A stretch of DNA of 63,092 bases, filler included, from Stramenopiles sp. TOSAG23-6 (GCA_900128565.1; 10 parts of 10 records of this genome joined end to end with filler, not necessarily neighbours in it), one strand, 5' to 3'. Shown: positions 6,101 to 48,857, counted from the first letter of the whole stretch. The notes: generated by a model from the letters alone, not told the origin. Program-made: numbers and translations.

Positions 6101-6232
6101 ATCTCTTGATTTTCTTTCGATGAATAATAATTGTTCAAATAAAAGACATTCTGTCCCAGGAATATTTCGTGTTGTACTATTTTCAGAATTATTTTCAGAA
6201 TTATTTTCAGAATTATTTTCAGAATTATTTTC
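110..6232 (-). CDS. UTP20: UTP20 (U3 snoRNP/SSU processome HEAT-repeat protein), partial at both ends; exons 6232-671 and 543-110
   Basis: Large HEAT-like ORF with UTP20/DRIM-type motifs (DPEQDFFLNMTHVQAHRQVKAL, GYMVHIMGYTLH, LFPLGKKRLQNH, FLPLVLRLVND). Frame is open from the contig end at 6232. Removing 544-670 joins ..LVNDN to NSDCRRM.. in frame. Confidence 0.88.
544..670 (-). other. GT-AT intron, 127 nt, phase 0, UTP20 (copies at 6876-7002, 13208-13334)
   Basis: AAT|GTATGTTTT..TACCTAAC..AAATATTTTTCCAAAATACAT|AAC; joins two out-of-frame ORFs. Confidence 0.85.
6178..6232 (-). repeat. 12-bp coding tandem repeat (ENNS)n at contig break
   Basis: (TTATTTTCAGAA) about 4.5 copies on + strand. 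Confidence 0.9.
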
Positions 6233-6332
6233 NNNNNNNNNNNNNNNNNNNNNNNNNNNNNNNNNNNNNNNNNNNNTTAATTAATTAANNNNNNNNNNNN
6301 NNNNNNNNNNNNNNNNNNNNNNNNNNNNNNNN
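6233..6332. other. Artificial contig linker (N44-TTAATTAATTAA-N44); also at 12565-12664, 18897-18996, 25227-25326, 31555-31654, 37874-37973, 44191-44290, 50493-50592, 56795-56894
   Basis: Same 100-nt spacer with six-frame stop cassette; flanking contigs sorted by length. Confidence 0.97.
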
Positions 6333-6441
6333 TTTTGGAAAAATATTTCAAAAAAAATCTAAAAAAATTGTTAGGTACAAAATTTACAATAAAACAAATT
6401 CGATTTTTTTTTTACCGGAAAAAAAAAAAAATAAAACATAC

Positions 6442-12400: not shown

Positions 12401-12564
12401 ATTCTTGCTCTTACGTCACGATCGCTTTCAAAATCTCTTGATTTTCTTTCGATGAATAATAATTGTTCAAATAAAAGACATTCTGTCCCAGGAATATTTC
12501 GTGTTGTACTATTTTCAGAATTATTTTCAGAATTATTTTCAGAATTATTTTCAGAATTATTTTC
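6442..12564 (-). CDS. UTP20: UTP20, redundant contig copy 2
   Basis: Identical ORF translations, offset +6332. Confidence 0.85.
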
Positions 12565-12773
12565 NNNNNNNNNNNNNNNNNNNNNNNNNNNNNNNNNNNN
12601 NNNNNNNNTTAATTAATTAANNNNNNNNNNNNNNNNNNNNNNNNNNNNNNNNNNNNNNNNNNNNTTTTGGAAAAATATTTCAAAAAAAATCTAAAAAAAT
12701 TGTTAGGTACAAAATTTACAATAAAACAAATTCGATTTTTTTTTTACCGGAAAAAAAAAAAAATAAAACATAC

Positions 12774-18996: not shown

Positions 18997-19175
18997 TGTT
19001 CTTGTTCAAGACGTAATCTTTCAGCTTCAGCCTTCTGTTGTTGTTCAAGACGTAATTTTTCAGCCTCGTCTTTTTGTTTTTGTTCGAGACGTAATCTTTC
19101 AACCTCATCTTTTTGTTCTTGTTCAAGACGCAATCTTTCAGCTTCATCTTTCTGTTCTTGTTCAAGACGTGATTT
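18997..19175 (-). repeat. 39-bp coding repeat (EQEQKDEAERLRL-like), coiled coil
   Basis: Repeated 13-aa unit running into the contig end. Confidence 0.8.
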
Positions 19176-22100
19176 TCTTTCCTCTATTTCGTTTTTGCGG
19201 CGTATAATTTCAGCTTTCTCTCGAGAACTTTGCACTTCTGTTGTTTTTACATCTCTTTCATTTTGAAGTTGTTTCACATTACACATATTGCCATTGCAAA
19301 CTTTCTCTTGAAACAATGGGAGATGTCCATCCTCAACTTTGTTACCTAAAGACCCTGAAATCGATCCATTTGCTTTAGATGTTTCATTCCAATTATACAG
19401 ATCTCCATTTGAGTCCATAAAACCACGAATAAGTTGTTTTGATTGAGGCGGTTCATCTGGTAATACTATGAATGCAGACTGTATATCGGTAACAGCTTGA
19501 CCTAAATCAACACCATCTTCTAAATTACGGCTAGTATATGCTATTGCTAATAAGTCTCCCTTGTTTACTTTAGTGTGTCGTTTGGCTCTCAGTGTTATAC
19601 CTGCGGAGTAATCAATAATATCACCAGCAAAGCGACGACCACTTCCTAAATTTACTGAAATCTCGCCTAATTTTTTTGTATCAATTTTGTGTATATATCC
19701 AGAATAAAGACTAATTACATCAGCTTCAAATTGAGGAATATGGATTCTCTGCCTCAAGGTTGTTTCTTTGTACGATCGTTTTACAATATGATTCGGAATT
19801 GATAATGGCGGGAAAATATTCTCAGAGTTAGGTGAAATATCTATAAACACTCTTGAATCGCCCCCTTGATCAACAACCATGGAAAGGAAACGTTGTGCAG
19901 CACGGCCATCTAGTAGCGCTTCTTCCGCAAGCTTATATCCCAACTGAAAATCATCTGTCTGTTTTGATGCGACTAGCATTTGCGCTGCAAGAGTAAGTAC
20001 TAAATGCACAAGATCAGGCGACCCATTTCCCTGTAAAGTCGCCCAAGCTTCTTCTACCTCTGACCAATTCCCAATAGCATTACCCAATGGTTGATCCATA
20101 TCAGTGAAAAGTACAGTTGTTTTTACTCCAGCAGCATGACCAGCCGATACCATGCACTTTGCAAGTTTTATCGCATCATGCTTATTAGGGAGGATAGCTC
20201 CATTTCCAATCTTAACATCCAAAACAATTGCACTTGCACCACCTGCTAGCTTTTTACTCATTATAGAACTACAAAGAAGAGCCAAACTTGGTGCTGTACC
20301 AGTCGCATCCCGAATCTCATAAATCGCTTTTTCAGCAGGGGCTACTTCTGCAATGGGTGATATAATTCCAACCCCTGAACTTCGTAAAATTTTGGTGAAT
20401 TCAAAATAATCTAGATCAGTATTGAAACCTGGTATGGAATTAAGTTTGTCGATAGTACCTCCCATATGGGAAAGACCTTTGTTAGATATCAATGGAACAA
20501 CTACACCGAGAGAAGCAGCAAGTGGAGCAAGAATTAAACTTGCTTTATCACCAACACCACCAGTGCTATGTTTATCTACAGTATTTATTTGTTCAAGCTC
20601 AACTCGCTTGCCGCTGTCAATATAGGCGTCAGTGAGATCTGCTATTTCTGAATTTGTCATTCCTACAAGTTGAATAGTCATTAAAAAGGCACTCATTTGA
20701 TTTTCAGTAACCGACCCATCCATAAATCCAGTAATAACATTATTTACGTCTTTTGCTGATAACACCTTACCGTCTCTCTTCTTTGCAATGACCTCACTCA
20801 TTGAGAATCGTATTATTTCTTTTTTATTTTCTTTCTCATTGTTCTCTGTCATTTCATTGCAGATAATTGCAGGAGGTGCTGGGAATCCGCCTCCTTTTCG
20901 AAAATTAAGATGTGCCACAATGTTCTTTAGTTGAGTATCGTCAATTTGAAAATAAGGACATAACTCATATTCTAGAATTTGAGTTTGTGATACCGAAGTA
21001 TTAGGAAAAACCGCGCCTGCTTTTAAAAGTTTTTGATTATAAACATCTAGAAGGATACTACTTGACGTTTTAATAGAATTTTCCACAGCAGTCTTGCTCC
21101 AATTACTATGTACAGGCGCATACTCACCATTAACACCATACCTTTCAACGTACAAGGCCACAGCATTATCAGCAAATCGAATTGCGTCGCCTATAACACG
21201 TTCATACTTAAAACCATTCAGCTTTGTTGGGGGAGTTTTTACCGCACCATCTTTACTAATGGTACCAATTCCAACTGGAACTTTGTGATAGTATAATTCA
21301 TCAGAATGGTCTAACATTTTCTTCGCAAAGTTGTTACTTAAATAAATATTTGTAATATCTTGCTTATCATATTCAAGATTTGTTACTTTAGCTTTGGGTG
21401 TGTTAAAAAGACTCTCATTTTTCAATCTACCCAAAAATTGGTTTTCGAGTGATTCAGATGTACTATATATAGAATAATTGAAACCAGAACCATCCTTATG
21501 TAAAACACCTGAAATATCACCATTATCACGAACTCTTCGAACAACTTTGAATCCAATATCCATGTATTTTGGCAAAATATTTCAAAAAAAAATCGTTAGG
21601 TACACAATTTCGTACGAAAAAAAATAAATTCGAAATTAAAATTGAAATGAAAACGTACATATTACGCTCAATATTTAATCCTATAAAAATCGGGTCGGCA
21701 ATTCGAGTTAAAGCATTGTCAGCAGAAAACAGAAATAAATGTTCAACGCCTGCTCTTTCCCATTGCAAGTCAATTGCATGTTTCTTCATCGCCGCAAAGA
21801 CTGCACCATGGCCATCAGGACTCATAGCGATACTACCATCTAGGTTATAAACAGGCATACCGTCTATGCCTACACAGGGTAATTGCGTCTGTTCAAAAAA
21901 ACGAACTTGGGCACTATCTAAGCCAAAGAACTTATTGTCTTCAAAGAAATCACGTGTTTTCCTTGAAGAACTAACACTTGTCATAATAAAAAAAGGAATG
22001 GCTGGGGTAAGAAGCATTGTCTGTAAATGAAGAAGCTGTTTAGCATACAATCCAAACAAACTTGTTTTTGAAGGTATTTCTAATGCAAGCATTCCTTTTG

Positions 22101-22425
22101 GGAGATCATCACTACAACCAGTGCCTAAGCCTTCCGCCAACAGAACTACTCCTAGCTTACCCTTTCTTAAAATATCTTCACCAAGACTTCGCCAACGCCA
22201 ACGATCTTCTAGTTCAGCGTGTGCTAAAGAAATGACGTTAGTAAAGTGAGATATTGATGTTGGTAGTTTCTCAACTATTTTGAGCTTTCGTAGCTGACTT
22301 TGGAGTTTATTAGGATCCCGTAGTGCATTTGCCAATCCAGAAAAGTCCAAAATACTATTAAAAAATAGTGTTTGTAAAAGTATAAAGACAGCCAGTTGTC
22401 CTCCATGAAAAAAAAATGCCCTCAT
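18997..22425 (-). CDS. Fusion protein: signal-peptide-like N-terminus + UDP-GlcNAc pyrophosphorylase-like (UDPGP family) domain + pyrimidine-nucleoside/thymidine phosphorylase domain + coiled-coil repeat; exons 22425-21659 and 21561-18997 (3' partial)
   Basis: UAP-like motifs GVVLLAEGLGT, PKG, IPFFIMTS, FFEQ, SPDGHG, DNAL..ADPIFIG; junction gives ERNM-DIGFKVV. PyNP motifs VDKHSTGGVGDK, GGTIDKL, SSIMSKKLAGG, LDVKIGNGA, DMDQPLG. Confidence 0.8.
21562..21658 (-). other. GT-AT intron, 97 nt, phase 2
   Basis: AAT AT|GTACGTTTT..TTTCGTACGAAATTGTGTACCTAAC..AAATATTTTGCCAAAATACAT|G GAT. Confidence 0.85.
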
Positions 22426-22907
22426 AGTAAAGAAAAACAGATATATCACTTACGTTGATCAGGCTAGTTATCAATCAATCGATATCATGCAACCAGTGCA
22501 AAATAGTTCATCTTTACTCGATGAAAAGAAAAATATTGATATTATAACTCATAGTAAAGAACAAATATAGTAAGATATGTTTTTTTTCTTTCCATCTTAA
22601 GATTCGATCCCGGCCAACGGCCAAAGATTCGAACCGACGCGACCAAAACACGAATTCGGGAATTTTCCAAAATATGAAGTCAGTAAAATCAGTAAAATAA
22701 TAGCGTCTGGAGTCGTCGTAGAATGAATAGATTAAGCCTAGCTAGATTAATTTCATTGCACTCAATTAATTGCCATTTAAAAGTTCTGTGAAAGAAAAAT
22801 TGCATTTACATTGATAGATTATCTTTGTTCATTTAATTAGAATTGTATCTAGATTTTGTATACATTATCCTAAGTACATCTAGGATCTACACGTGTACTC
22901 TGATAAT

Positions 22908-24315
22908 ATGACTATCCAACCTTCACTTCAGTTACAATGTGAAAATTCAGACCGCAATCGTAGTGACTCTTTTAGTGGTGAATTTGAAGGACCAGAAAAA
23001 ACTTTGGAGATTGATTTTGTACAAGATTATAGAGTAGGTAATGTTCCTCTTTGTAAACTCGGAGCTCGATGCCTCCCGCGATCTGTTTGGGATGAACTTT
23101 GTGCTGCAGCAAACTGTAGTATATTGGATGTTGTGCGAGGAACTCACTTTGACTCCTATATCTTATCAGAATCTAGTTTGTTTGTTTACCCTTGGAAAGT
23201 TGTCATTAAGACATGTGGTACAACAACATTAGTAAAAACAGTCCCTATACTATTAATACATGCCAAGAAATCAAATTTAAAGGTAGAGTGGGTATGTTTC
23301 CAACGTAAAAATTATTCATTTCCTGAACGGCAGTTGCCACCTCATACGTCTTTTGCATCAGAGTGTGATTATTTAAATCAATTTTTTGATGGAGATGGTT
23401 TTGTATTAGGCCCAGTGACAAATGATCATTTTTTGTTGTATGTTGCAGACGACACAAAATGGACGACGATAGCGTCTAAAGATAGAACTATTCAATTACT
23501 AATGTACGACTTGCATGAAGAAGCTGCAAAAATATTTTATAAAAAATCTCATGGATCAAATGGCGCAGATGCTGTATGCAATGCTCTTGGTCTACCTTTA
23601 CTCATACCTCCTGATAAGGGGAATATTCATGGGCATATGTTTGATCCTTGTGGATATTCAATGAATGCTTTACTGGATGACGCTTACTTCACTATACATG
23701 TTACTCCTGTATGTTTTTTTTTTTTTTTTANAAAAAAATCGAAATTTTTTTTTCGTACGAAATTTTGTACCTAACAAATGTTTTTAGATTTTTTTTTGAA
23801 ATATTTTTCCAAAATACATGAGTCGCATTGTAGTTATGCGAGTTTTGAAACAAATATACAGATTCGTAATTATCAACCAATGTTGAAGCATATACTATCT
23901 GTATTTTCACCAAAACGATTTACAATGACTGTTTTTGCCGATGAAGGAGGCCTTAAAGAAATGACTTGTATGTTTTATTTTTTTTTTCAAATTTGATTTT
24001 TTTTTCGTACGAAATTTCGTACCTAACAAATTTAAGTTTTTTTTTTTTGAAATATTTTTACAAAAAACATGTCCAACAGACCTTCACTGTCTGATTGTTG
24101 AAAGTAAATATTTTTCTACGAAAACACTAGAAAGAAAAAACCCTAACCCTAAGCAAATTCATACAACAAAACCAACAAAACAAAATGTACAAACAGAAAA
24201 TACAAATTATATCAGATATTACCGGTTAAATAAATGCCATGCTGAATTTGCTTGTGATTATTCATGCTCAATGTCAAATTTTATCATGAGAAAAGACAAA
24301 GATATTTTATCATGA
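22908..24315 (+). CDS. AMD1: S-adenosylmethionine decarboxylase proenzyme; exons 22908-23708, 23820-23967, 24071-24315
   Basis: FEGPEKTLE, YILSESSLFV (pyruvoyl cleavage site), KTCGTT, FDPCGYSMN. Splicing restores TIHVTP|ESHCSYASFETN. The last exon is open to TGA at 24313-24315. Confidence 0.92.
23709..23819 (+). other. GT-AT intron, 111 nt, phase 0
   Basis: CCT|GTATGT..TACCTAAC..CCAAAATACAT|GAG; restores the conserved TPE motif. Confidence 0.9.
23968..24070 (+). other. GT-AT intron, 103 nt, phase 1
   Basis: ACT T|GTATGT..GTACGAAATTTCGTACCTAAC..ACAAAAAACAT|GT; downstream frame open. Confidence 0.8.
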
Positions 24316-24500: not shown

Positions 24501-25174
24501 CTAATTGTCCATTGCAAATTGTTTTTTTTCATCAGTCTCCAAGTCATCAAATTCTATGAAAATATATTTCAAAAAAAAAAATCGTTACGTACAAAATTTC
24601 ATAATATAAAAAATTTGAAATTCTCTCATGATGGAAAACATACATATAAATCACTCTTTACATTTGCCATATAGAAACGTTTTTGTAGTCTATCCCCCGG
24701 GTTTCCATTACTTTGTAAATAAATGAGAGTAAATCCTCCCACATGTTGGGTGAAAAAAATATTTTTTTTTTTTACAAAAAAAAATCGTCAGGTACAAAAT
24801 TTTGTATAAAAAAAATAAATTCGAAATTGGTAAAAAACGAATGATGAAAACGTACATTACTGTTAACGACATTTTCTAGATCTCCTTCTTGCTCCAACAT
24901 TGCACTAGGAGAATGAGATAACTTGGAGAAAGGAGATGGCCAGTACTGAAAATAAGCTACTGTTGAGGTTAGATAACCCAGTATAAAACCCATAAGAATA
25001 TATTGTGAAAAAATATTAAAAACGAAACATTTCGTTAGGTACGGAATTTTCTATGAAAACAAATGTAGGTAAAAAATTTATCATGAAAATGTACATGTTC
25101 CACCAATGATGCCTTCTATCAATTAATCGACTCAAACCTATTACAAGTGAACCTAATATTAGTGAAACACATAC
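24501..25174 (-). CDS. PAP2 / lipid phosphate phosphatase family protein, 5' partial; exons 25174-25095, 24997-24856, 24742-24644, 24548-24501 (last acceptor tentative)
   Basis: Spliced product reads GLSRLIDRRHHWWNILMGFILG, matching the PAP2 C3 motif SRxxxxxHxxxD (D replaced by N), flanked by hydrophobic helices. Confidence 0.72.
24549..24643 (-). other. Family intron, ~95 nt; acceptor TTT (alternative TAG at 24554)
   Basis: TAT|GTATGTTTT; branch variant TACGTAAC; end placed by the usual 15-nt spacing after AAATAT. Confidence 0.6.
24743..24855 (-). other. GT-AT intron, 113 nt, phase 0
   Basis: AAT|GTACGTTTT..TACCTGAC..CACCCAACAT|GTG; following 99-nt exon is open. Confidence 0.78.
24998..25094 (-). 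other. GT-AT intron, 97 nt, phase 2
   Basis: AAC AT|GTACAT..TACCTAAC..CACAATATAT|T CTT; restores the PAP2 motif. Confidence 0.82.
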
Positions 25175-25326: not shown

Positions 25327-25379
25327 TGTACCTAACAATTTTTTTTAGATTTTTTTTGAAATATTTTTCCAAAATACAT
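25327..25379 (+). other. Family intron 3' part (CAT acceptor)
   Basis: TACCTAAC..AAATATTTTTCCAAAATACAT|GTG at contig start. Confidence 0.75.
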
Positions 25380-26814
25380 GTGTTTGCGGATGGTAGGATT
25401 AGTGTTACTTGGGAAGCAGATGGTTCCATCAGTGAAATGGAGTGCAATTCTGCCAATGTCTTACCAAATGATTGGGATAAATGGATGGATTATGACAACG
25501 ATGGATGGGTTGATGGATTGTGGGTTCGTTGTGTTGATGATGAAGATAGACTATATTATTTTAATACAGCTACTGAAGAGACACAGTGGAATAAGCCAAT
25601 TTTGGACATAGAAAATAGCGATTACATGTCTGACAGTTCACTGGAATATTTACACCAGAAATCCAAAGAAAACAAAGCAATTGTTGCATTTGCAGAATGG
25701 GCACCAGTACCTGACGAAGAGGAAGACGTCGAAAATACCAAAGTAAACGTAAATTCTGAAGTAGACGTACAAGAAGCAGCAGGTACAACCAGTACAGAAG
25801 AAATTGCGGTATCAATGACTGAATCAATTCCTGAGAATGATTTAGGAATTGTGCGATCTATTGCGGCATATAATCCAAATATAGAAGACAATAGAGAAGA
25901 AACTGTTAATGGTGAAGATGGTGATGCCGGAGGAAGTTTACACGAATTGCATCTTCGTGAAAACGATCTTATTCGTGTATTTCATCAACAGGAAGATGGA
26001 TGGTGGTATGGCCAGCGTTGTTCAGGAACAGCTGTAGATTATAAAGATGATCAAGAAAACGACAAAAAGACTAATGAAAACGTTGATGAAAAAGATGACC
26101 AAAATTATATATCTAGTGGTAGCGATTTTGGTTGGTTTCCATCAACATATGTTGAATGGGTTGAAGAGGTCGGTGAGGTTGTTGCTGTAGCAGATTATGT
26201 TCCTGACTCAGGTTTAGAAATGCAATTACTATTATCGGAGGGCGATAGAGTCAGAGTACTACAACAAGAAGATAGTGGCTGGTGGCATGGAATGAATCAA
26301 TTTGGTGTATGTGGTTGGTTTCCATCTACATTTACATCATGGTGTGAATATGATGAAGAAGAGTCATATAATAATGATGTTACTGTTGATAATACAAATA
26401 TGAAAGACTCTATAAAAGTGAATAGATTACATAATATTGATGATTATAATCAACCACAAGAAATAGAAAGTGATACAGATAGCGAATCGTCAAGTTATGA
26501 GGAAGACAGTAATTCTCTTAAAACTATGCAATTTAGTGTGAATGAAGTAGTTGAATCTAGATTTAGAGGTAAAGACCGTTGGTATATGTACGTTTTCATC
26601 ACGATTTGTTTTTTTTTTTCGTACCAAATGTTGTACCTAACGAATTTTTATCCAAAACAAAAATATCTCTTCACAATACATTGGTAAAGTTGTAACAGTC
26701 AACCGAAACTCATATGATATTTTGTATGATGATGGGGACCTTGAAAAAACTGTTAATCTAGATTATGTTCGACCTCGTGGGACGAAAACAGCACAAGAGT
26801 TGAGAGTAGAGTAG
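25380..26814 (+). CDS. WW + two SH3 + Tudor/Agenet-like domain protein, 5' partial; exons 25380-26587, 26682-26814
   Basis: WW (WVRCVDDEDRLYYFNTATEETQWNKP); SH3 x2 (GWWYG..GWFPSTYV, GWWHG..GWFPSTF); spliced C-terminus RWY-I-GKVVTVNRNSYDILYDDGDLEKTV is Tudor-like. Confidence 0.8.
26588..26681 (+). other. GT-AT intron, 94 nt, phase 2
   Basis: TAT AT|GTACGTTTT..TACCTAAC..CACAATACAT|T GGT; no AG between branch motif and junction. Confidence 0.87.
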
Positions 26815-26896
26815 TGAATGAACATTTTTGAAATAATTTTTTAAGAAATTTAGTTGATTTTTCACTACAATAAATGCATGATACAAATAAAAAAGT

Positions 26897-27802
26897 TTAT
26901 TTTAAACCTAAAATCCATTCTAGTTCCTGAGAAGTGAAATCATCCCCTAAATCATCTGTTATTTTAAAATGTGACTTTACTAAGGTATCACCATTGTAGA
27001 TATTTATTGCAGGACATAAAATTGGGTCAAAGTCGTGCATCGCTTCACTGCCACGGAGAGAAATAAACCGCAGCTGTGGATGACGAATAGCCAATTCTCT
27101 AAAATGTGCATTTACTAAACGACAAGTGGATAAACTTCCATCATATATATGAACTATAACTGTAGTCGGTGGCGATAATTTTTGCGCAGACGCTAATTCC
27201 TTAAGAAATTGGTCACCGTTAACCTCGTTACTTTCGCCATATTGCTGTGCGGCGGCTGCCCATTTCATTTCTCGAAGTCGACGTTCACGAAAGTTTCTAA
27301 AAAAAGTGTCGTCAGAGTCCTCTGAGTCACTACTACTATTCCTCGTGTAATCTGGAAAACGCCTTGCATTGTCGCCATTTATTATATTTTCAATGACAAG
27401 TCCACGTTTATCACCTGTTGATGAAAATGACGTAGACGGAGTCGTGTCAACCACACCTCTCGTGAGTTCTTCCATTCTATTCAATCTCAGCTCTCTGTCA
27501 CGCTTCATCTGGATTCGCATTCGTAATTTTGCATCTTTATAATCAGCAATCACACCTTTTGGTCCAGTCTGGTGTCTATCTCTTATAATTCTATTACTTG
27601 GATTATTCATACTTATTGAAGAACTGCCATCCGAATTATTCAAAACGAATTCTTCGCTTCCTTCATTATATCCTTCCTCCGCCTCCACAGCGGTGTCTTC
27701 TTCATCACTATCGTTTTTGTGTAGATCTTCGTCTCCATCAAGTTCATCTTTTAAATCTTTGAAGAGATATTTTTTCTCTAGCCCAACAAGTTCACTTCCC
27801 AT
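26897..27802 (-). CDS. Phosducin-like protein (PhLP1/PDCL-like), intronless
   Basis: QTGPKGVIADY motif, RERRLREMK helix, C-terminal thioredoxin-like fold (VIVHIY..C..VN..L). Confidence 0.85.
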   Translation of the reverse strand: MGSELVGLEKKYLFKDLKDELDGDEDLHKNDSDEEDTAVEAEEGYNEGSEEFVLNNSDGSSSISMNNPSNRIIRDRHQTGPKGVIADYKDAKLRMRIQMKRDRELRLNRMEELTRGVVDTTPSTSFSSTGDKRGLVIENIINGDNARRFPDYTRNSSSDSEDSDDTFFRNFRERRLREMKWAAAAQQYGESNEVNGDQFLKELASAQKLSPPTTVIVHIYDGSLSTCRLVNAHFRELAIRHPQLRFISLRGSEAMHDFDPILCPAINIYNGDTLVKSHFKITDDLGDDFTSQELEWILGLK

Positions 27803-28069
27803 TGGATGAGTGTAGTATCCTTCAGTTAGTTCTTGATACTAACTACTAGTATCCTTCACTCCCCGGGAGATAAGATCAGATCTTTTCGACCGTTTACAAA
27901 TCGGGCAAAAACGTTTGCCGTTTTTGCAAAAAAAATGACCTGATTTGATTCAAATTTTATGAATTTCCAATTGTAGTTTGAAATTTTTGAATATTTTGAC
28001 TATTTTTTTGGATCTTTGTCGAAATCTGAATGGAATTTTCGGGGTTTGGAGGAATAATGGAAAAAAATT

Positions 28070-28520
28070 CATGATTTCATCCATCTTTCAATGATGATAT
28101 CACAAAAATGCGATTAAATTTTGACTATTTTTTTGATTTTTGATTAAAACAGTAAATGTAGCTTTAAATTTTCATGATGTCATCCAAATTTCAATTGATT
28201 TTTTTATCATTTCAAGAAAAATAATATGATTTCATTCAAATTTCGATTGATTTTTTATATATTTTTTGATTTTTGAGTGAAAAATAACGTAAAACATTGA
28301 TTTCATTCAAATTTCGATTGATTTTTTATGATTTCAGGAAAATTTGATAATTTTTTCGATTTTTCAGATTTTTTGGTGAAAAATAACATAAAATATTGAT
28401 TTCATTCAAATTTCGACTGATTCTTTCATAATTTCACAAAAATCTGATTATTTTTCCGATTTTTGAGTAGATCGTGAAAAATAAGATAAAATATTCATGA
28501 TTTCATCCAAATTACTAACA
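28070..28520. repeat. Degenerate AT-rich tandem repeat (GATTTCATTCAAATTTCGATTGATTTTTT core) in a ~1.4 kb non-coding tract
   Basis: Core recurs near 28175, 28229, 28299, 28398, 28497. Confidence 0.6.
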
Positions 28521-29779
28521 AATCCTTAACAATTTTTTAGCAAATTTATTGAAATTAAAATGAAATTTTCAAATATTTGAGTAAATGACGAATTTTCAGG
28601 ATTTTATCCAAATTTGGAATGATTCGGTATAATTTGAGAAAAATGCAATTATTTTGGATATTTTTTCAACAAAACTCGAAAAATTTGATTCTATATCCAA
28701 AATAATTCGATTTTATCGGATGTTTGGCCATTTTTTACAGATAATTGTCGAAAATCTGATTGAAAATCCGCTTTTTTTTTAGATTTTGGTCGGAAATCTC
28801 ATTCCATATTTGATTTCATCGGATTGTTTCGCTATATTTTTAGAGTTTTAGTCGAAATCTGGAATGAATGTGATTTCACCGGATTTTTCAGAATCTTGGC
28901 CATTTTTCTAAGATTTTTTCAAAATTTTGTAAAATATTTTTTGATTTTGACCAAATCGAAAAGTTGGACGAAAATTTCGATTGTACCGATTTTTCATTTT
29001 GGTAAGAAATTGGCTGTTTTTTTTCTTTTTTTTCTCGTCATGTGAAAATTTTCGAAATTTTTTGGCACCACCCGGCACATTTTTTTTCGATTTTTTTTTT
29101 TTTTTTCGAAATTTGAAATCGCGCGCGCGATTTTTACTAAACTTTGGCCGGAAATTTCGGAAATCCTGCGCGAAAAGTGAAGAATCTTCTTGGGTCACGA
29201 AAAAAAAATTTTTTTTGGTTTTATTTTGGAAAAAAATGTAAACGCCTGGAACGACGTTTTTTTTCGCTTTCGAGACGTTTTCGCTGTAAAATCCGCGTTA
29301 TTTTCCTTTACAACAATGCCAAAAAATACTAAATATAGTGATGAAACTAATAATTTAGCATGATATCCGTATATAAACTACCTTATTGGTACTCTTGATT
29401 GTTTTTAAAGCTTTTCGAGGATTTCAGGTTTGATAAAAAATATAATCGTTTACAATTTTGTTGACCTCATGGAGCTCATGGAGCCTCGGTTCGCATGAAA
29501 ATGGTTCTGACAGCACAGATGATAAAAAAATAACACAAGATTAACAAAATAACTTGTACAAGGACATATATAGAAACAATTCTCGTTTATTGTATATAAA
29601 ATAATATAATATAACCAATAGTATTCCCATTTTTTTCATATATAATATAAGTTCGAACGAATTTGTGCAAGCACGAACTTATCAAACAACATCACCGTAT
29701 AAATATGTACATTCCCCCTCCTCGTGTTGCTTTCATGGTGCAACACATTAGCGATGTTGTATAAGTCCCCGAAGGGAGC

Positions 29780-30359
29780 TTATTTCTTTGCAGCCTTGCG
29801 TCTGCGTGGGCTAGCAGCTTTGCGTTTGCGTTTACGGCGGCGTTTTGGAGCAGCGCGTTTCTTGGTTGCTGCGCGTCTCTTTGCCTTGCGTCTCTTTTTG
29901 GTAGCTGCGCGGCGCTTGGTTGCCTTGCGTCGTTTTTTGGTTGCTGCGCGTTTCTTTGATGCCTTGCGTCTGCGTTCTATGTTGTGAAAAATATTCAAGA
30001 AAAGATAAAAATGAGAACTTCCGTTACACTTGTCATGGGGGTTCGCGAAGTGTTACAAAACACGTAAAAAAAATGTGTGGGACAATAGAAATTAAAACCA
30101 AACACAAAGGGTATGATGTAATATCACGTTAAAAACACTTTACAATGAAAATGAATGTTTTTCCTTCGTGCAAAAAAAAAATATCGGGAAATGAAGTTCG
30201 GGAAATTTGCGTGTTGTTCCATGACAACTTACTTGGTGCAGCACGGCGTTTGGAAGCAGCCTTGCGTCGTTTTGGTGCAGCACGGCGCTTGCGTGCGACC
30301 TTCTTGCGGCTCTTTGCAGCAGATTTGCGTGCGCGGGTCTTGGATCTTGTTTTTACCAT
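29780..30359 (-). CDS. Small Lys/Arg/Ala-rich basic protein (histone H1-like / protamine-like, no globular domain), 107 aa; exons 30359-30233, 29976-29780
   Basis: MVKTRSKTRARKSAAK..RRAAP-K-RRRKASKKRAATKK..SPRRRKAAKK*; joined in frame by a GT-AG intron. Confidence 0.8.
29977..30232 (-). other. Canonical GT-AG spliceosomal intron, 256 nt, phase 1
   Basis: CCA A|GTAAGT..GTGTAAC..GAATATTTTTCACAACATAG|AA CGC; only the AG keeps the basic reading frame. Confidence 0.82.
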
Positions 30360-30808
30360 TTTTATGAACTTTGTTTTTGCTTTTTGAAGAACTGTTGAGC
30401 TTTTGTTACTTTTGTACAAGGAAACAAACAAACAAAAGAAAGAGGCGGCTTGGCGTTAAAGAAAGATTTTTAAGAAACGCCACTTTTCTTCCGTAACAGA
30501 CATGTTTACGCTTTAAGTAACAAAATTTGGTACGAATTTTTCCCAAAGAAGTTTCCGGGTAACAAAAAGAAGTTTCGGGTAACAAAATATAAACCGCCCT
30601 TGAACGCGTTATTATATCTCAACGGCTGGTTTTAACCCTAACCCTAGGTAATCCTTTGCGTGTTTCGCTCATTTTTTTTCGACTGACTACCTAAAAAAAC
30701 AAAAGTACTTTAAGTACTTTCCCCAAACCTCGCGTACAAATTTACCACAAAAGGCAGGAGTTGTGACTTTACATTAAATAATAGCTAGATCCTAGAGAAT
30801 ATACAGAA

Positions 30809-31468
30809 ATGGATATCGATGGTGGGGGTGGAGTGGTTGATGATTTGTCAGTAAAAATGCAGTGTATTCCGGCAACACCAGACTCACAAATAGAGGATCG
30901 AATGGACACTGATTTTGATAGTAGACCCTGGTGGCCAACAGGAAACTGCCAAGTCTATTCTCAATCACACGCTCGTTTTGTCCATGATCCTCAAATCAAG
31001 TTAACCCCTCTAGAATGTGATGTTTTTGGTATTATCCGTGAAGCAATTAGTTTAGGTAATACTGGGACTGTGGCCCGTTGTGCTGGTGGATGGGTTCGTG
31101 ATAAGTTGCTTGGCAAAAGTAGTGATGACATTGATATTGCTCTAAACAATATGAAAGGTACAGAGTTTGCTTCACTTGTGCAACAAGTAATTCGTGGTCG
31201 TCTAGGAGAAGAAAGTGTAGATCGGGTACATACTATCAAGGCTAATCCAAGTCAATCGAAACATTTGGAAACTGCAACAATGTACGTTTTTCAAAATTGA
31301 ATTCTTTACCTACATTTATTTTTTTTTTACTACAAAATTTCGTACCTAACACATTCCAATTCTATATTTTTTTTAACAATCCATGCGAGTTTTAGGTATT
31401 GACGTAGATTTTGTACATTTAAGAACTGAGACTTATACAAAAGGTTCACGAATCCCATTGATAAACAT
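30809..31468 (+). CDS. CCA1: tRNA nucleotidyltransferase (CCA-adding enzyme), 3' partial; exons 30809-31281, 31385-31468
   Basis: RCAGGWVRDKLLGKSSDDIDIAL; splicing gives SKHLETATM-RVLGIDVDFVHLRTETYTKGSRIP. Confidence 0.9.
31282..31384 (+). other. GT-AT intron, 103 nt, phase 2
   Basis: ACA AT|GTACGTTTT..TACCTAAC..AACAATCCAT|G CGA; first downstream AG is out of frame. Confidence 0.87.
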
Positions 31469-31554
31469 GAACGTTTTATTTTTTTCAATTTCGAATTTAT
31501 TTTTTTCGTACGAAATTTTGTACCTAACAAATTTAAGTTTTTTTTTTTGAAATA
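31469..31554 (+). other. Family intron with GA donor, 3' end truncated
   Basis: AAC AT|GAACGTTTT..TTTCGTACGAAATTTTGTACCTAAC. Confidence 0.7.
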
Positions 31555-32098: not shown

Positions 32099-34084
32099 AG
32101 AAGCTTTAATGATATTTGCTATAGTCTCTGAAGAGTAAATAAAATCACCATGTATACTATTGGGTCTCCAAACAACTTTTACTATCGATGACAAATCTTC
32201 ATTTGACTTATTTTTTATTCTACTCTTGTTTTTATATCCATCTTGTAAATATTCTCGAACATCAGCAGAAGGAACAATATTATCATCTCCACCAAGAAAA
32301 ACTGTTGTTGTTGATGATTTTGTAATTTGTTCATTCATACAATTTGACACAACATTTTTTTGTCTTTTTTGTCTTTTTTGTCTCTCATTACCGTTTACTA
32401 CAGAGTATTGTCTCTGATGTATTTCATAAAGATCCTCTAGAAATAAAACATTCTCAAACCAATCAAATTTATGGGACAAAATAGTTGCTAATCGTTTTTC
32501 AGTTGTAAAAAAATAATGTGAAAAATATTCATATGTATTTCGAGGTTGTCTAAAAAGTACATTGATACAAACATTGTGATGATACAGTAGAAAACAGACA
32601 GGATCAATAAATACAGCTCGACAAATTCTTTCTGGTTTTGCTTTGATTAACCAGGACATAGGTATTGAACCAAATGAGTGGCCTATTGCAGATATTTTTT
32701 GATTATCATGACCATGTTTCTCAAGCATTGTCAAAACAGCAGACACTAAAGCAGCAGGAGGTAATGCATCACCTTCATCATCATTAGACAATCGTAATGA
32801 AATCGATGAATTTTCCACTAGAAATACATCTCTTTCAACAACTCCATTATTTACTACATGTAACCCTTTGATAAGTTTTGTATAGATAGAAAATCCTATA
32901 CCAAGACCATGAAAGAATATTGCTGGAGAAATTTTTATCTCATTCTTTTCAATATTGTTTTGTGTTTCAGTTGTACCAGCTTTTCTGTACCAATAAATCA
33001 TTTCAAATTCTACATTTGATACATTTTGTACAGCTGTACTTTTTATATCGGGAAGAATAGGAATAGATATCTTAACAGTTTCACGAGTATAACCAAGCAT
33101 TAATTGAAATATCATAGGCTCAATTACATATTGCATCATAAGATGAGAAAAACCATATAAAAATAAAGGTCGAGGTAAAGAATGTATAGCTTCTATACCA
33201 TGTCGTATTGGACGTGAATATTTAAGAGGTGAACATGATTTTACTTGAGTTCGTTTATCATTTGTCATTGCTGAAATGATTTGATTATTCGCAATAGTCT
33301 CTGTATTGCAAAACAAGTGTTGTTTGGTCTCTTCAACACTACCAAAATCGATAGAACCAATATTTTCACTACCATTTGCAATACACTCAATATCATCTAC
33401 TACTTTTGATATCGTATTCTGTAATACACTGTCATGTACACAATGGATTCCATTTCTTGAATTACTTCGCCAATCAATTCGTATTTGGAACAAAGTCCAT
33501 GCTATAAATGATTCTATCCCAGAACGTGTAAGGCAGTCATATGATTTTCCTCCAAACCAACCTTCTAACCAAGATCTCATCTTTACAGGTGTTCCAACTG
33601 AAGAAAGCATCTTTTTCCAATATTGCATACTAACACTATATGGAAAACGTGATAATGATGAAAATCTACGAACACCTTTTGTAACATTTTTGTCCATCAA
33701 AGTGTCGTTCAGTTTTCGTTTCCACACCCAACGCTGATACACGAGGTAAAATATACACTCCAGTAAACTAAAACATTTAATGAAGGATGTAATCCCACTC
33801 GGCCATAGATTTTTGAATACATTACGCCGTGATATATTGGTTGTTTTAAATTTATATTTCTTCAACCATAAAACTAATTTGCGGACCCAATAGAATGTCG
33901 AGAGTGGACCAACACTCTGTAAAATAACAATGACCGATTTCAATACAAAACAAGCAACAGTAGAAGATGACGTGGTTGAAATATTCTTATGAATTCCATT
34001 ATTTCTTTTAGTTACAGGAGACTCAACTCTTGCTCGATCCATAGGTGTCTGCATACTGTTACGTTGATTACTTGTATGATCCAC
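32084..34084 (-). CDS. Alpha/beta-hydrolase fold protein, intronless (first ATG about 10 codons in)
   Basis: FFHGLGIG, nucleophile elbow IGHSFGS, FIDPVCF, LGGDDNIV, C-terminal HG. Confidence 0.8.
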   Translation of the reverse strand: MDHTSNQRNSMQTPMDRARVESPVTKRNNGIHKNISTTSSSTVACFVLKSVIVILQSVGPLSTFYWVRKLVLWLKKYKFKTTNISRRNVFKNLWPSGITSFIKCFSLLECIFYLVYQRWVWKRKLNDTLMDKNVTKGVRRFSSLSRFPYSVSMQYWKKMLSSVGTPVKMRSWLEGWFGGKSYDCLTRSGIESFIAWTLFQIRIDWRSNSRNGIHCVHDSVLQNTISKVVDDIECIANGSENIGSIDFGSVEETKQHLFCNTETIANNQIISAMTNDKRTQVKSCSPLKYSRPIRHGIEAIHSLPRPLFLYGFSHLMMQYVIEPMIFQLMLGYTRETVKISIPILPDIKSTAVQNVSNVEFEMIYWYRKAGTTETQNNIEKNEIKISPAIFFHGLGIGFSIYTKLIKGLHVVNNGVVERDVFLVENSSISLRLSNDDEGDALPPAALVSAVLTMLEKHGHDNQKISAIGHSFGSIPMSWLIKAKPERICRAVFIDPVCFLLYHHNVCINVLFRQPRNTYEYFSHYFFTTEKRLATILSHKFDWFENVLFLEDLYEIHQRQYSVVNGNERQKRQKRQKNVVSNCMNEQITKSSTTTVFLGGDDNIVPSADVREYLQDGYKNKSRIKNKSNEDLSSIVKVVWRPNSIHGDFIYSSETIANIIKASQTQI

Positions 34085-35063: not shown

Positions 35064-35114
35064 GTATGTTTTCAAAATTGAATTTCAAATTTTTTTTTTG
35101 TACCAAATGTTGTA
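35064..35114 (+). other. Family intron 5' part, interrupted by the inversion junction
   Basis: TCT T|GTATGTTTT..TGTACCAAATGTTGTA, then switches to the reverse copy. Confidence 0.7.
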
Positions 35115-38027: not shown

Positions 38028-40736
38028 GAAAAAAAGATACAAACGATATCGAGCAGCAGTGCGTTGTTGGAGAGAAAGACATGCAAGGCCTCTTGTAAAC
38101 CGTGTAGAACAACACATTGCTCGTGAAATTCGTAATTATATGGAAGTTCAATCTTTGCGAACAAAAAACGATATTCGAATGACACGTATTATTTTTAAGA
38201 GATGGCGGAGAGAATCGAGAAAATCTCGTCCACACGTCAAAGCAAAAATGTCAAAAGTCTTACAAATGCTAAATGAACGAAACTCTCGTACACTAAAACT
38301 TTGTTTTCAAAGTTGGGGGCTTTGTGCGAATGGAAAGGGGAGTTGTAAAGCTGTAAAAGCTGCATATAGAGCTAGGTATATAAAGGCGAGAGCTACGGTA
38401 AAAGATAAATCACGAATTAAAGGAATTATTGCAAAAAGTGAGATTTTACGACAATTAAATTGCGATGCGACTGCAATCATTCGTGCAAACCATACAAAAT
38501 ATTTAATGCTCACATGTTTTAGTGCATGGGAATATGATACACTTTCAAAATTTAGATGGAAAGTTAGTCAAGCAAATCGACATTTTTTCATAACAACGAC
38601 AAGCAAATGTTTCCAAGCTTGGCATTATTATATTGATATGGTTTTATCAGGATTACCTGGTGCACCTCGGGAAGGTGCGCAGAGGTTTCAATCACTACAT
38701 AATCAAAATGCAATACATCAACACTGGCGACGTAGTCATCTACGAAAGCATTTAAAGTATTGGAATATTTATTCTAAACCGAGAGCACACGTTCGAAGGC
38801 TAGAGAATGAACATGTAGGTTCCCATACTGAATTTCAAATTTAGTTTTTTTTTCATATGCAATTTTGTACCTAACGATTTTTTTTTGAAATATTTTTTTA
38901 TAATGTATGCAAACAAACGTGCTAGATGGGCCATTGACACGTGGAAATGTAGAACGATTTGGTCAAAACGTATGAAAGCCTTGTGTGTGTCAGAATGGAA
39001 AGATTATGGTGAAAGACTTATGTCAGTACCTTTTCGAGCATGGTTTTGTTGGGCACATGTACGTTTTCATTATGAATTTTATTTATTTACTTTTTTTTTT
39101 TAGTATGAAATTTTGTACCTAACAATTTTTTTTTGGTAAAAAAAAAAAAANATATTTTTTCACAATATATGAAAGAAGGATACGAAAAACAACAAAACGA
39201 GTCATCGTCAGCGCATTTCGACGTAGAAAAATGTATCATAGAAAATACCAAATATTTAAAGCCTGGAAACATTTAGCAATGTTTGGTAAAGTGGAAGGCT
39301 TAAAGAGTAGGGTATCATGTACGTTTGCAAATTTAAAATTTTACCTACATGTTTTTACTATGAAAATTTTGTCCCTAACAATTTTTTTTCTTAAAGAAAA
39401 AAAATATTTTTTCACAATACATTGATAAAAGCATTACAAGAACAAAATACATTTGCAGTGGCACTCGAGGAAACAATCGATAAATTACAAGATGAATTAG
39501 AAGTATCAGAAGCCGCATTGAAATCCCAACAGGAGGAAAATAAAGAACAACTGGAAAAACATGAAGACTTGTACGTTTTCAAAATTGTATTTTAATTTTT
39601 TTTTTGGTAGAAAATTTGTACCTAACGAATTTCAAATGTAAAATATTTTTTAAGAATACTTGGAGCATAAATTCCAAAGACATGAGTTTGCGTTGCATAC
39701 TGCGGAAGCAGAAATAGTTCGGTTGCAGTCAATAATTGATGCTCTCACAATCATGTACCCTAGTACAGTAAAACTTTTGGATGATGCTGCTGGAGGAAAC
39801 CCAAAAGATGAAAATAAAGCTGTACATGAAAATACTGATGACAATCAAATAGATACAGCGAATGACGATGCTGACATTCTTGATTTAAAACCTTTTGTGA
39901 GAATGAGAATTAAAGAATCCAATGAAAATGATGATGATGCTACAGAAGTGAAAAGTAAAGAATCCAATGAAAAAGATTCTACCAAAGATAGCACGAAACA
40001 AAAGATTACACTGAATTCTATGCCAAGCACAGAAGAACTTGTTATAGATTCTAGTAATGATTCCAGTAATGTAATTAACAGTATACAAAGCCCAGAAAAC
40101 AAGGTCGTGGGCTCTAGTAATGACTTAAATGTTGCCACTTTGAAAGCAACCACTACAGTCACAGAGGAACAACAAAACGTTGAATCTGTGGATGCAAATC
40201 AAACCAACACACCGGCAAGTGACTCTACTAATAATGTAAATGATAAAGCTCTACAAATGACTCAAAAAAGCGAGTCTAATAAAATACTAGCCACCTCAAT
40301 GAAAGCATTGAACACAAATAATCAAGAGTTATTACCTGCACTTGACAGAATGATTCTTGCAAGATCTAAAACAGTGCTTGTAAAAGTAGGATTACTTCCA
40401 GAGGATGAACAAGACAAAATATTTCGTATATCTAATATGGAACGAATAACATTAGGGAGTATAGTTAATACAGAGGCTGTCTCTTTACTCCACTTTATTG
40501 GTACAGGAAAACCCGTTCGCAATGATTATGTTAATGAGACATCAGAAACATTTTCAGACTTTCTTCGAGGTATAGAGTTAATGTATCCACTATCACATCC
40601 TCTTAATATTTCCGCGCGTTCACAACTACAAGCTCGCATTGCTCGTGCTAAATCTAGACATAATGATAAATTAAACTTGCAACTGACAGGGGATGGGAAA
40701 GTGAACATATATAGAGAAGGTGATAATGATAAATAA
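38028..40736 (+). CDS. Sfi1-repeat-like (putative centrin-binding) coiled-coil protein, 5' partial; exons 38028-38814, 38909-39058, 39171-39318, 39423-39570, 39662-40736
   Basis: Recurrent FxxW motifs (IIFKRWR, CFQSW, CFSAW, CFQAW, PFRAW, IFKAWK); removing four family introns gives one continuous ORF. Confidence 0.65.
38815..38908 (+). other. GT-AT intron, 94 nt, phase 0
   Basis: CAT|GTAGGT..TACCTAAC..ATAATGTAT|GCA. Confidence 0.78.
39059..39170 (+). other. GT-AT intron, 112 nt, phase 0
   Basis: CAT|GTACGTTTT..TACCTAAC..CACAATATAT|GAA. Confidence 0.8.
39319..39422 (+). other. GT-AT intron, 104 nt, phase 1
   Basis: TCA T|GTACGTTT..TCCCTAAC..CACAATACAT|TG. Confidence 0.8.
39571..39661 (+). 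other. GT-TT intron, 91 nt, phase 2
   Basis: GAC TT|GTACGTTTT..TACCTAAC..AAGAATACTT|G GAG; joins to the 39660 ORF in frame. Confidence 0.75.
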
Positions 40737-47005: not shown

Positions 47006-48857
47006 ATGATTGACCAATTTTCTGTGTTCTCTAAATCTGGAGTTGTCCTTTGGTGTAGTGAAGAGTATGAGGCTCCAGGGTCTCCTGTAAACAAATTAGT
47101 ACAACAGGTCCTTTTAGAGGGTCGTTCTTCAGAGTCTCAATTTGATCAAGGAAGTTACAGTATAAAGTGGCGCTTCATGAATGATATGGATCTTGTTTTT
47201 GTTTGTGTTTACCAAAAAATATTAAAGTTATTGTATGTTGAGGAACTTCTTGATAAGGTGAAGAATGCATTTTTATCTCATTTTGAAAACGAAGAGAATC
47301 TATCGGACCGTCACTTACCTGTAGATTTTGATGTTATGTATAAAGACATTCTCGAGGAAGTTGAGTTGGGCCAGCTTCGGCGGAAGCCACGTGAAATGCG
47401 TGGATTTGTTGCAAAAGAAAAAGGGCAACGAAATGGGGTAAATGGTAGTCAGAAGACAATGACAAAAGCCGAAAAAAAACGGTTGAAAAATGGCGGGGAC
47501 GAAAACTCGAAACCATTCACGTCGCGAGTAAAACGTGTCATGCGAGGTTTTGTGAAGAAAAACAAAACAAAGAAGAATAATAAAGATAATGATGACAATC
47601 AGAAGAAAATTCCAAACAGGTCATGGAATGATGCTTCGTCATTAAATAGGCCAATATCAAAAAAAGATATTGCTAAATGGAATAAAAACGAATCTGAACA
47701 AGGAATAGCAGCCGGGGATTGCGAGGAAAAAATGATATTAGGCGAGTCCCAGATGGAAATTTTAACTGATGATGATTCTAGTGATGAAGACGTAAATGAT
47801 AAAAACGAAACAAGTAAATCTAGTTGGAGCTTTGGAGGTGCGATGGATTTTCTCAAAGGTTTATCTGGAAACAAACCTTTGAAACGATCTGACATTGATG
47901 AGGCTTTAACCACAATGGAACATCAACTAATAGAAAATAATGTTTCAAGAAATATAGCATCAGATTTGTGTGAAAGTGTTGCTGCAACACTGATTGGTAA
48001 TAAAGTTGGTACTTGGATGAATTTGCAGAAACTTGTAAAAGATTCTTTGAAAGATGCTATGACTCGTGTTCTCACCCCAAAAAAATCAATTGATGTTTTA
48101 CGTTCTGCCTTCCAAGCGAAAGCAGAAGGCCGTCCTTATTCTATTGTATTTATTGGAGTCAATGGCGTTGGAAAGTCCACATCGCTATCAAAAGTATGTT
48201 ATTATCTATTACAAAAAAAGCTTTCGGTATCTATTGCTGCATGCGATACCTTTCGTTCAGGTGCGGTCGAGCAGTTGAAAGTACACGGACGACGCCTTGG
48301 TGTTAATATATTTGAAAAAGGATATGCAAAAGATCCTGCCCAGGTAGCAACAGCAGCTATTAAAGAGGCAAAGAAGGAAGGTACTGACGTAGTCTTGATA
48401 GATACAGCCGGGCGTATGCAAAACAATACAAAGTTGATGAAAGCCTTGGCTAAGTTAGTCACTGATACGAAACCTGATTTAGTTTTATTTGTTGGAGAGG
48501 CTCTTGTTGGAAATGATGGTGTTGATCAGTTAAAATTTTTTAATCAAGCATTGGCGGATAATTCATCAGCAAGTACACCTAGGTTGATTGATGGTATCGT
48601 GTTGACAAAATTTGATACTATTGATGATAAAGTTGGAGCTGCTTTGTCAATGGTTTATGTACGTTTTCCTCATTCAGTTCAAATTTGTTTTTTCTGTACC
48701 AAATTTTGTACCTAACAATTTTTTTTCAACCAAAAAATAAATATTTTTCACGATATATGAAACAGGACAGCCAATACTTTTTGTTGGAACTGGTCAAAAG
48801 TATACTCATCTTCGACGGCTTAACGTACAAACTGTGGTAAAGGCGCTTTTTAAGTAA
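47006..48857 (+). CDS. SRPRA: Signal recognition particle receptor alpha subunit; exons 47006-48658, 48759-48857
   Basis: N-terminal longin (SRX) domain, [18 protein letters not shown]; splicing restores [27 protein letters not shown]. Confidence 0.95.
48659..48758 (+). other. GT-AT intron, 100 nt, phase 0 (copy at 54961-55060)
   Basis: TAT|GTACGTTTT..TACCTAAC..AAATATTTTTCACGATATAT|GAA. Confidence 0.9.

Follow-up and report, generated by a model that had tools for sequence, protein, structure and literature searches.

A GT-AG intron confirmed in RNA resembles, at its acceptor end, a repeated and mostly AG-less intron family in a putative marine stramenopile

In Fritillaria borealis, the available text describes a minority of GT-AG introns beside a majority of repeated, recently gained introns without AG (PMC11282704), an arrangement that the locus reported here resembles. 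Target-site-like repeats lie at the intron boundaries there as they do here, removal of the introns is credited to the U2 spliceosome, and U2AF is the suspected point of change in the accessible parts of both reports (PMC11282704, PMC13326754). Conserved U2AF paralogues are described as serving the canonical introns, and diverged ones as binding the non-canonical 3′ ends, again in the text available (PMC13326754). This suspicion is exactly what the initial annotation of the present DNA had proposed to check. As far as its text was available, a 2025 survey of introners discarded families with unfamiliar splice sites and without transcript support (PMC12130899), and GT-AT introns are listed as a rare class in the accessible portions of splice-site surveys. 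The locus set against these systems is an intron of a gene for a basic, H1-like protein, located within a 63,092-nt stretch of DNA (the window) that also holds a family of repeated introns mostly ending in AT.

The window consists of ten assembly contigs of about 6.2 kb each, ordered by size, with each linker between them consisting of 44 N, TTAATTAATTAA and a further 44 N. Contigs 1-3 share one sequence, as do contigs 8 and 9, and contig 6 is a near-perfect palindrome; the non-redundant sequence amounts to about 40 kb with about 33% G+C. In many contigs the repeated intron-family element is interrupted by the contig ends. Within contig 6 (31655..37873), a 2,866-nt perfect inverted repeat flanks a 691-nt centre, an arrangement that a chimera formed in single-cell whole-genome amplification would be expected to show, and the family copy in a MAK-like kinase gene is truncated at this centre (35064..35114). 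Rfam and tRNA scans of the window gave no matches. Another stretch (18999..22449) is a thymidine-phosphorylase-type region with three Pfam domains; upstream of it, across a family intron, a 307-codon frame resembles UDP-sugar pyrophosphorylase by eye, and a fusion protein of the two is possible.

The same DNA is present in seawater metagenomes and metatranscriptomes. The best protein match of the open frame for the SRP receptor (93% identity) has a MAST label in its source name and is followed by two matches at 61-62% identity and then by oomycetes at about 45%. The source is treated here as what appears to be an uncultured marine stramenopile of a MAST lineage. A diplonemid origin was considered and dropped, as a MAST-labelled sequence heads the protein matches, with oomycetes after it.

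On the strand of the H1-like gene (Table 1), exon 1 ends in CCAA and is followed by GTAAGT...GTGTAAC...GAATATTTTTCACAACATAG, the intron end reading CATAG. The initial annotation had quoted this sequence and these coordinates correctly, and the junction, which it had said a differing cDNA would refute, is present in RNA: the exact joint 29976->30233 was found in contigs of all four metatranscriptome runs (X6, X7, X8 and X10; two studies). This joint removes exactly 256 bases, reads CT..AC on the plus strand and so GT..AG on the gene strand, and has a positional ambiguity of 0 and a shorter side of 44-170 letters. Two of the four runs are poly(A) libraries, and the RNA was examined as assembled contigs, the spliced ones having depths of 23.8, 14.8, 428 and 761.5. 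Unspliced contigs occur too, at low depth (10 for X8 record 27, 3.2 for X10 record 6), and RNA contigs extend past the exons to 30489 in the 5′ UTR and to 29588 in the 3′ UTR. The gene is small and highly expressed and encodes a basic protein. A Pfam search with both exons (E <= 0.01) found no family, including no Linker_histone globular winged-helix domain, and the look-alikes of the product in the protein atlas are low-complexity bacterial clusters alone, which have weak recognition value. The label 'H1-like' is best taken as describing composition, not family membership.

The intron of this gene is a genuine U2-type GT-AG intron and the only canonical one (n=1) in the roughly 40 kb of non-redundant sequence. 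Its donor is GTRAGT-like and fits the U1/U6-pairing consensus. By reading, the nearest TRAY upstream of the acceptor contains a candidate branch A (30024), which the last intron base follows at 47 nt; the corresponding distance is 44 nt in the UTP20 intron and roughly 31-48 nt, from branch motif to cut, across the family, and the two spacings on which the initial annotation had based its comparison (47 and 44 nt) are both confirmed. A T-rich tract follows TAAC. The sole other downstream AG lies 4-5 nt after the branch-like A, and apart from that one the acceptor is the first AG past the nearest TAAC. A family-type ACAT, 2 nt before this AG, is unused in all four RNA runs.

The surroundings of the gene show two further features. 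A telomere-like motif, CCCTAACCCTA, occurs five times (24141, 30636, 40753, 58953 and 61271) against 0 expected and is intergenic in at least three cases, the copy at 30636 lying between the H1-like gene and the divergently transcribed gene for the CCA-adding enzyme; it may be a promoter box. The region 27980..29300, hardly covered by RNA contigs, has no convincing open frame and consists of loose repeat units of about 100-190 nt and long runs of T or A.

Table 1 Positions of the H1-like gene, its intron signals and selected introns of the repeated family, counted from the first letter of the window.
Feature	Position	Strand	Details
Contig 5	25327..31554		Holds the H1-like gene and its intron
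Exon 1, Lys/Arg/Ala-rich H1-like gene	30233..30359	-	ATG at 30359; 42 codons + 1 base; from open frame
Intron of H1-like gene	29977..30232	-	256 nt, GT-AG, phase 1; from RNA joint
5′ splice site GTAAGT, H1-like intron	30227..30232	-	From sequence
Branch-like GTGTAAC	30023..30029	-	Candidate branch A 30024; from sequence
Acceptor-proximal module GAATATTTTTCACAACATAG	29977..29996	-	AATAT 29995..29991; pyrimidine run 29990..29986; spacer ACAACATAG 29985..29977
Exon 2, H1-like gene	29780..29976	-	2 bases + 64 codons + TAA 29782..29780; from open frame
Family intron, SRP receptor alpha gene	48659..48758	+	100 nt, GTACGT...ATATAT; copy closest to the H1-like acceptor
Family intron, S-adenosylmethionine decarboxylase (AdoMetDC) gene	23709..23819	+	111 nt, GTATGT...ATACAT
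Family intron, UTP20-like gene	544..670	-	127 nt; joins 1854- and 163-codon frames; comparator of the initial annotation
Family intron ending AAGAATACTT	39571..39661	+	Joins 58- and 357-codon frames; 4-nt microhomology ACTT
Family copy with shortened 3′ end TTTTCATAG	24554..24643	-	nhmmer E = 3.3e-9

A profile built from the 14 complete copies of the family and searched with nhmmer over the non-redundant contigs recovered 23 copies or fragments in about 40 kb, with host genes that include those for UTP20, AdoMetDC, the SRP receptor and the CCA-adding enzyme, among others. Complete copies are 90-127 nt long and start with GTAYGT after a T (GTAYGT in 12/14), contain the core GTACCTAAC (exact in 11/14), and end with AATAT, a pyrimidine run and then about nine A/C-rich bases. 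Within the 3′ ends of the family, conservation is among the highest in the last 22 columns, whereas immediately before them the copies differ in length and in sequence. The family carries U2-type donor and branch signals. A U12-type donor is absent both from the family (GTAYGT) and from the H1-like intron (GTAAGT), and 31-48 nt separate the branch motif from the cut. One copy (31479..31554) starts with GAACGT in place of GTAYGT, after an exon ending in AACAT, and has lost its 3′ end at the end of the contig.

When a complete copy is taken out, GT through final base, the longest frame before it is joined to the longest frame after it in 14/14 cases. Thirteen of these copies end in AT (12) or TT (1), and in all thirteen the last intron base equals the last exon base, the repeat being at least 2 nt long in eleven. 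A 4-nt repeat (ACTT) is found in the one copy among them that does not end in AT, and this departure favours target duplication over a fixed element end. Five of the thirteen copies contain an unused AG between branch motif and cut, at 31, 32, 34, 26 and 7 nt before the cut: the UTP20 intron skips the AG 31 nt before its end, and the copy ending in AAGAATACTT skips one only 7 nt away. The copy at 24643..24554 may use AG, since a cut after CATAG (18 more codons) and one after CAT (2 codons, then a stop) would both give a legal C-terminus.

Comparison with homologous proteins places the boundaries in the same way. In the SRP receptor, the part encoded by exon 1 stops at residue 276 of 6y32_B and residue 278 is matched by the second residue of exon 2, and in the homologues P0002 and P0003 (61-62%) ETGQPI directly follows SMVY, as the GT...AT junction predicts. 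For AdoMetDC, the P that closes exon 1 corresponds to residue 180 of 5tvf_B, and the E that opens exon 2 to residue 181. The initial annotation had set the family boundary after YAT; on the 14/14 frames, the two structures and the two ETGQPI homologues, a cut after (A/T)T is right. An AT-AC (U12-like) reading with boundaries shifted by -2 was rejected, because the AdoMetDC exon ends in CCT, whose P aligns with a conserved P of solved structures, and because the shifts allowed in all 13 copies are 0 and -1 only.

A database coding sequence, P0001, is identical to the SRP-receptor gene except for gaps (93%) and reads VRQPI after SMVY. Three internal stretches of the frame, which runs through 553 codons without interruption, are missing from it, and it looks as if gene prediction had forced canonical GT-AG introns onto the gene, one of them through the family copy. 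The human SRP receptor in the solved structure keeps a longer spacing than P0001.

RNA proof of splicing is thin for the family. It comes from one 158-nt contig of one run, in which the match begins at 25378, inside the terminal CAT of a family copy; a second contig, from an RNA library, retains a family intron. Other RNA contigs at the family introns of contig 5 gave no usable joints, and the joints listed connect different copies of the repeat. The summed depth of RNA contigs over the family element itself (25327..25534, 31359..31554) ranges from 268 to 14,248 in four libraries, and that of the adjoining exons from 0 to 10 in the same libraries; many copies, retained introns, stable excised introns or DNA carry-over are possible causes of the high depth.

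Folding gave little sign of paired ends. Folds of six copies with their flanks have z values of -1.3 to +1.1 against shuffles in 6/6 cases, and the intron ends are paired in the minimum-energy fold of two of the six; a euglenid-like end-pairing model is not supported for the family, its folds being no better than shuffles. The inverted repeat extends over about 5-7 nt only (ATGTA...TACAT), and the microhomology at the boundaries over 1-4 nt in 13/13 copies. Exons between neighbouring family introns measure 150, 148, 148, 148 and 142 nt, others 94 and 99 nt, and include regions within 38909..39570, 23820..23967 and 24856..24997. Intervals of roughly one nucleosome would agree with insertion into linker DNA, and introners in Micromonas and Aureococcus are reportedly inserted into nucleosome linker DNA.

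A metagenome scan with the 17-base family core returned at least 117 loci, and no family copy was found among the matches listed, all of which were inspected by eye; nhmmer placed none of these listed loci at E <= 1e-3, and the best (0.0021) extends barely beyond the pattern itself. The 17-base pattern is too short to discriminate. A stricter gapped pattern matched 20 loci in prokaryotic genomes and two viral contigs, at no more than 17 bits compared with 20-56 for true copies, and these matches are read as chance. No discussion of introns was found in the main texts of the MAST genome papers PMC5778133 (two mentions, in the methods only), PMC12614181 and PMC8163842 (none in either). Literature joining 'introner' and 'MAST-4' was not found either in the collection searched, and such searches are no proof that the family is undescribed.

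The last 20 nt of the H1-like intron match the family copy of the SRP receptor gene, the best of the copies, at 16 of 20 positions without a gap, and 12 of the identical bases are contiguous. The spacer between pyrimidine run and cut measures 9 nt in the H1-like intron, and in the 3′ ends of the family 9 nt in 14/17, 10 in two and 11 in one. The distance from AATAT to the cut is 14 nt in the H1-like intron; for the AT/TT copies it is 15 nt in nine scored, 14 in one, 16 in one and 17 in one, and the thirteenth, with an N inside the AATAT motif, was read by eye as 15. The initial annotation had located the acceptor 14-15 nt after AATAT, which holds for the H1-like intron; the family spans 14-17 nt, and the 9 nt from the pyrimidine run are the steadier ruler.

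Local alignment of the last 60 nt of the H1-like intron with the family scores 34 and spans about 37 nt with three gaps. This score is reached by 3/500 dinucleotide shuffles (p 0.006), by 71 of 10,518 non-family 60-nt windows of the genomic control (0.68%) and by 60 of 3,768 AT-rich ones (1.6%), and the last 25 nt give p 0.008 in the shuffle control. The genomic figure of 0.7-1.6% takes no account of the shared end, orientation or register, and the resemblance was singled out after the fact. With nhmmer, the whole-family profile gives the H1-like intron E = 25 and 0.7 bits (true copies 1e-5 to 1e-16), and the 3′-end profile gives E = 18 and 2.2 bits at about rank 43, with some 20-30 non-family matches in about 80 kb, both strands, scoring at least as high as the H1-like site. 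A match to the acceptor motif as asserted by the initial annotation is borne out by the 16/20 identities, the 9-nt register and p values of 0.006-0.016, and is not recovered by the profiles (E = 18-25).

Outside its 3′ end, the H1-like intron shows no similarity to the family in its first 40 nt (p 0.83), its middle 156 nt (p 0.64) or over the whole intron (p 0.19). At 256 nt it is twice as long as any family copy (90-127 nt), and of the core GTACCTAAC it has the TAAC part only. Exon/intron microhomology is 0 nt, against at least 1 nt in 13/13 AT/TT copies, and the base preceding the donor is A, against T in all 13 complete AT/TT copies; a T at this position would make a stop, as read directly from the codon. 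A copy of a 14-mer of the module with one mismatch lies inside a 684-codon open frame (32516..32529). Judged from its sequence, the H1-like intron cannot be recognised as a copy of the family, but its acceptor end follows the family plan in the same register. The resemblance is modest and confined to the 3′ end.

How might the 3′ splice site be chosen in such an organism? The favoured reading, held tentatively, is that the H1-like intron and the family share a functional acceptor module. The 3′ end of the H1-like intron consists of a TAAC branch motif 47 nt upstream, an AAUA-led pyrimidine run and a 9-nt A/C-rich spacer leading to the cut, on the plan of the mobile-looking family, and the module would most likely contribute to 3′ splice-site definition in this organism. 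As 13/14 copies end in AT or TT and 5/13 skip an AG, the family must be recognised otherwise than by AG, and its best-conserved 3′ block is the obvious candidate determinant. The last one to four bases of the family introns, which copy the end of the upstream exon, would be a footprint of the insertion site, and AG would be dispensable there; in the H1-like intron AG would happen to occupy the same position. A module kept in an intron that is otherwise unrelated or fully decayed is probably under selection; it may be shared by common descent or by selection for the same signal. Since a U2-type donor and branch occur in both intron types, removal by the same or a related spliceosome that reads the module may fairly be supposed. 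The initial annotation had gone further, in having this spliceosome locate the site by motif and distance rather than by AG. The U2-type signals of both types agree with the first part of this proposal; the second is not derivable from the H1-like intron, because its AG is the first usable one after the branch motif and fits a first-AG choice as well. That choice explains the H1-like acceptor completely and equally well, and also counted against a shared module are the single intron available, its unused ACAT and a profile score that lies among chance matches. Moreover, conservation of a motif within a young repeat family is no evidence of function and may reflect age.

Alternatively, the H1-like intron, or at least its last 40-55 nt, could derive from a mobile family copy or a host intron that supplied the 3′ module of the family, and so be a neutral relic whose AG arose by mutation of a footprint base. 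The 12 contiguous and 16/20 identical bases shared with one copy, in an alignment of about 37 nt with three gaps, would be expected of a relic, an exon end AA is one change from a 2-nt footprint with the intron end AG, and even an undoubted family copy (24643..24554) may end in AG. In Amoebophrya, according to the text available, canonical introns show the repeat organisation of introner elements in 1% and 15% of cases (PMC7789003). Such descent is nevertheless doubtful here, given an intron of 256 nt against 90-127 nt, an A before the donor against T in the 13 complete AT/TT copies, a whole-family E of 25 and no similarity in the first 40 or middle 156 nt (p 0.83, 0.64); the sole survival of the 3′ module after decay of all else would itself argue for selection. 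Coincidence of composition is judged unlikely. AT-rich introns end T-rich and could match a variable consensus by chance, the H1-like intron following plain GT-AG rules and the family being removed by its own means, whatever these are, and this would accord with nhmmer values of E = 18-25, with 0.7-1.6% of ordinary windows reaching the score, with the 1-mismatch 14-mer inside the 684-codon frame and with a motif noticed after the fact. Against it, there was one canonical intron to test and hence little multiple testing over introns, and the match has the same end, orientation and register, with a 9-nt spacer and the cut at the aligned base.

A still more improbable arrangement would consist of two systems as in Fritillaria borealis, in which a canonical branch serves the H1-like intron and its family-like module is irrelevant. 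There is a precedent in the conserved and diverged U2AF paralogues of that species, as described in the accessible text (PMC13326754), and the H1-like acceptor obeys the AG rule with ACAT 2 nt upstream unused, but the shared register of the module would be left unexplained. Extending the favoured reading of a shared acceptor module leads to a bolder proposal, which we regard as speculative and rather unlikely in its full form. One U2-type spliceosome would cut about 9 nt past the AAUA-led pyrimidine run, 30-50 nt after CTAAC/TAAC, whatever the last two bases; canonical introns would follow the same plan with AG as a dispensable leftover, and this tolerance would have let a mobile intron with a site-derived end invade about one site per 2 kb of coding sequence.

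If the module truly sets the cut, it would be a natural case of AG-less 3′ choice with canonical donor and branch, cleaner than the cases of Fritillaria, Amoebophrya or the euglenozoans, in which drift has affected both intron ends, and it would make the replacement of AG testable. If only descent or chance is at work, the H1-like intron is an ordinary one among the many unusual introns of this genome. Where the family occurs, the gene models of such genomes are likely to be in error, as the example of P0001 illustrates.

In U12-type introns, how far the branch site lies upstream determines the 3′ end, and several terminal dinucleotides are tolerated; their donor consensus is (A/G)TATCCTT, and their branch site lies near the 3′ end, roughly 10-26 nt from the cut. 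The idea of a cut placed by distance and not by AG is common to these introns and the present proposal, although neither the H1-like intron nor the family has an ATCCTT-type donor and the branch motif here is 31-48 nt from the cut. In Fritillaria, as far as described in the available text, the introns mostly begin with AG and end with AC or AT, so that the GT donor is lost as well (PMC11282704, PMC13326754). Fritillaria is an animal, a tunicate, whereas the family described here belongs to a stramenopile protist, keeps GTAYGT and a strong CTAAC branch motif, and departs in the last base or two only. No report of canonical introns sharing an acceptor module was found in the accessible parts of the Fritillaria papers (PMC11282704, PMC13326754).

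Like the introners of Micromonas, Aureococcus and dinoflagellates, as portrayed in the text available, the present family consists of short, near-identical introns at high density in unrelated genes, with one splice site on the element and the other, in the present family, putatively in a duplicated target, and assemblies break inside the copies (PMC11282704, PMC12130899). It differs from the introner families described there in that the co-opted target would provide AT or TT here and provides a canonical AG there (PMC11282704, PMC12130899), and its inverted terminal repeats, at about 5-7 nt, are weak by comparison. The introner elements of Amoebophrya likewise have direct repeats of a few bases that overlap the exon/intron boundaries, and some canonical introns there are organised as the non-canonical family is, in the parts of the report at hand (PMC7789003). 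The same text describes no conserved terminal dinucleotides, hairpins with inverted repeats of 8-20 nt and no detectable U1 in that organism (PMC7789003), while the present family has a canonical donor and folds no better than shuffles. The nonconventional introns of euglenids and hemistasiid diplonemids, in the accounts accessible, share with it the non-GT-AG ends, the short direct repeats at the junctions and a suspected transposon origin (PMC6221363, PMC12621601). They are, however, described as being without U1-complementary donors or polypyrimidine tracts and as needing strong end pairing (PMC6221363, PMC12621601), and the hemistasiid intron ends as C/G-rich (PMC12621601), in contrast to a family with a donor, a branch motif, a T-rich tract and no significant pairing. 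What distinguishes the present family from all of these is that the canonical donor and branch motif are kept and only AG is lost.
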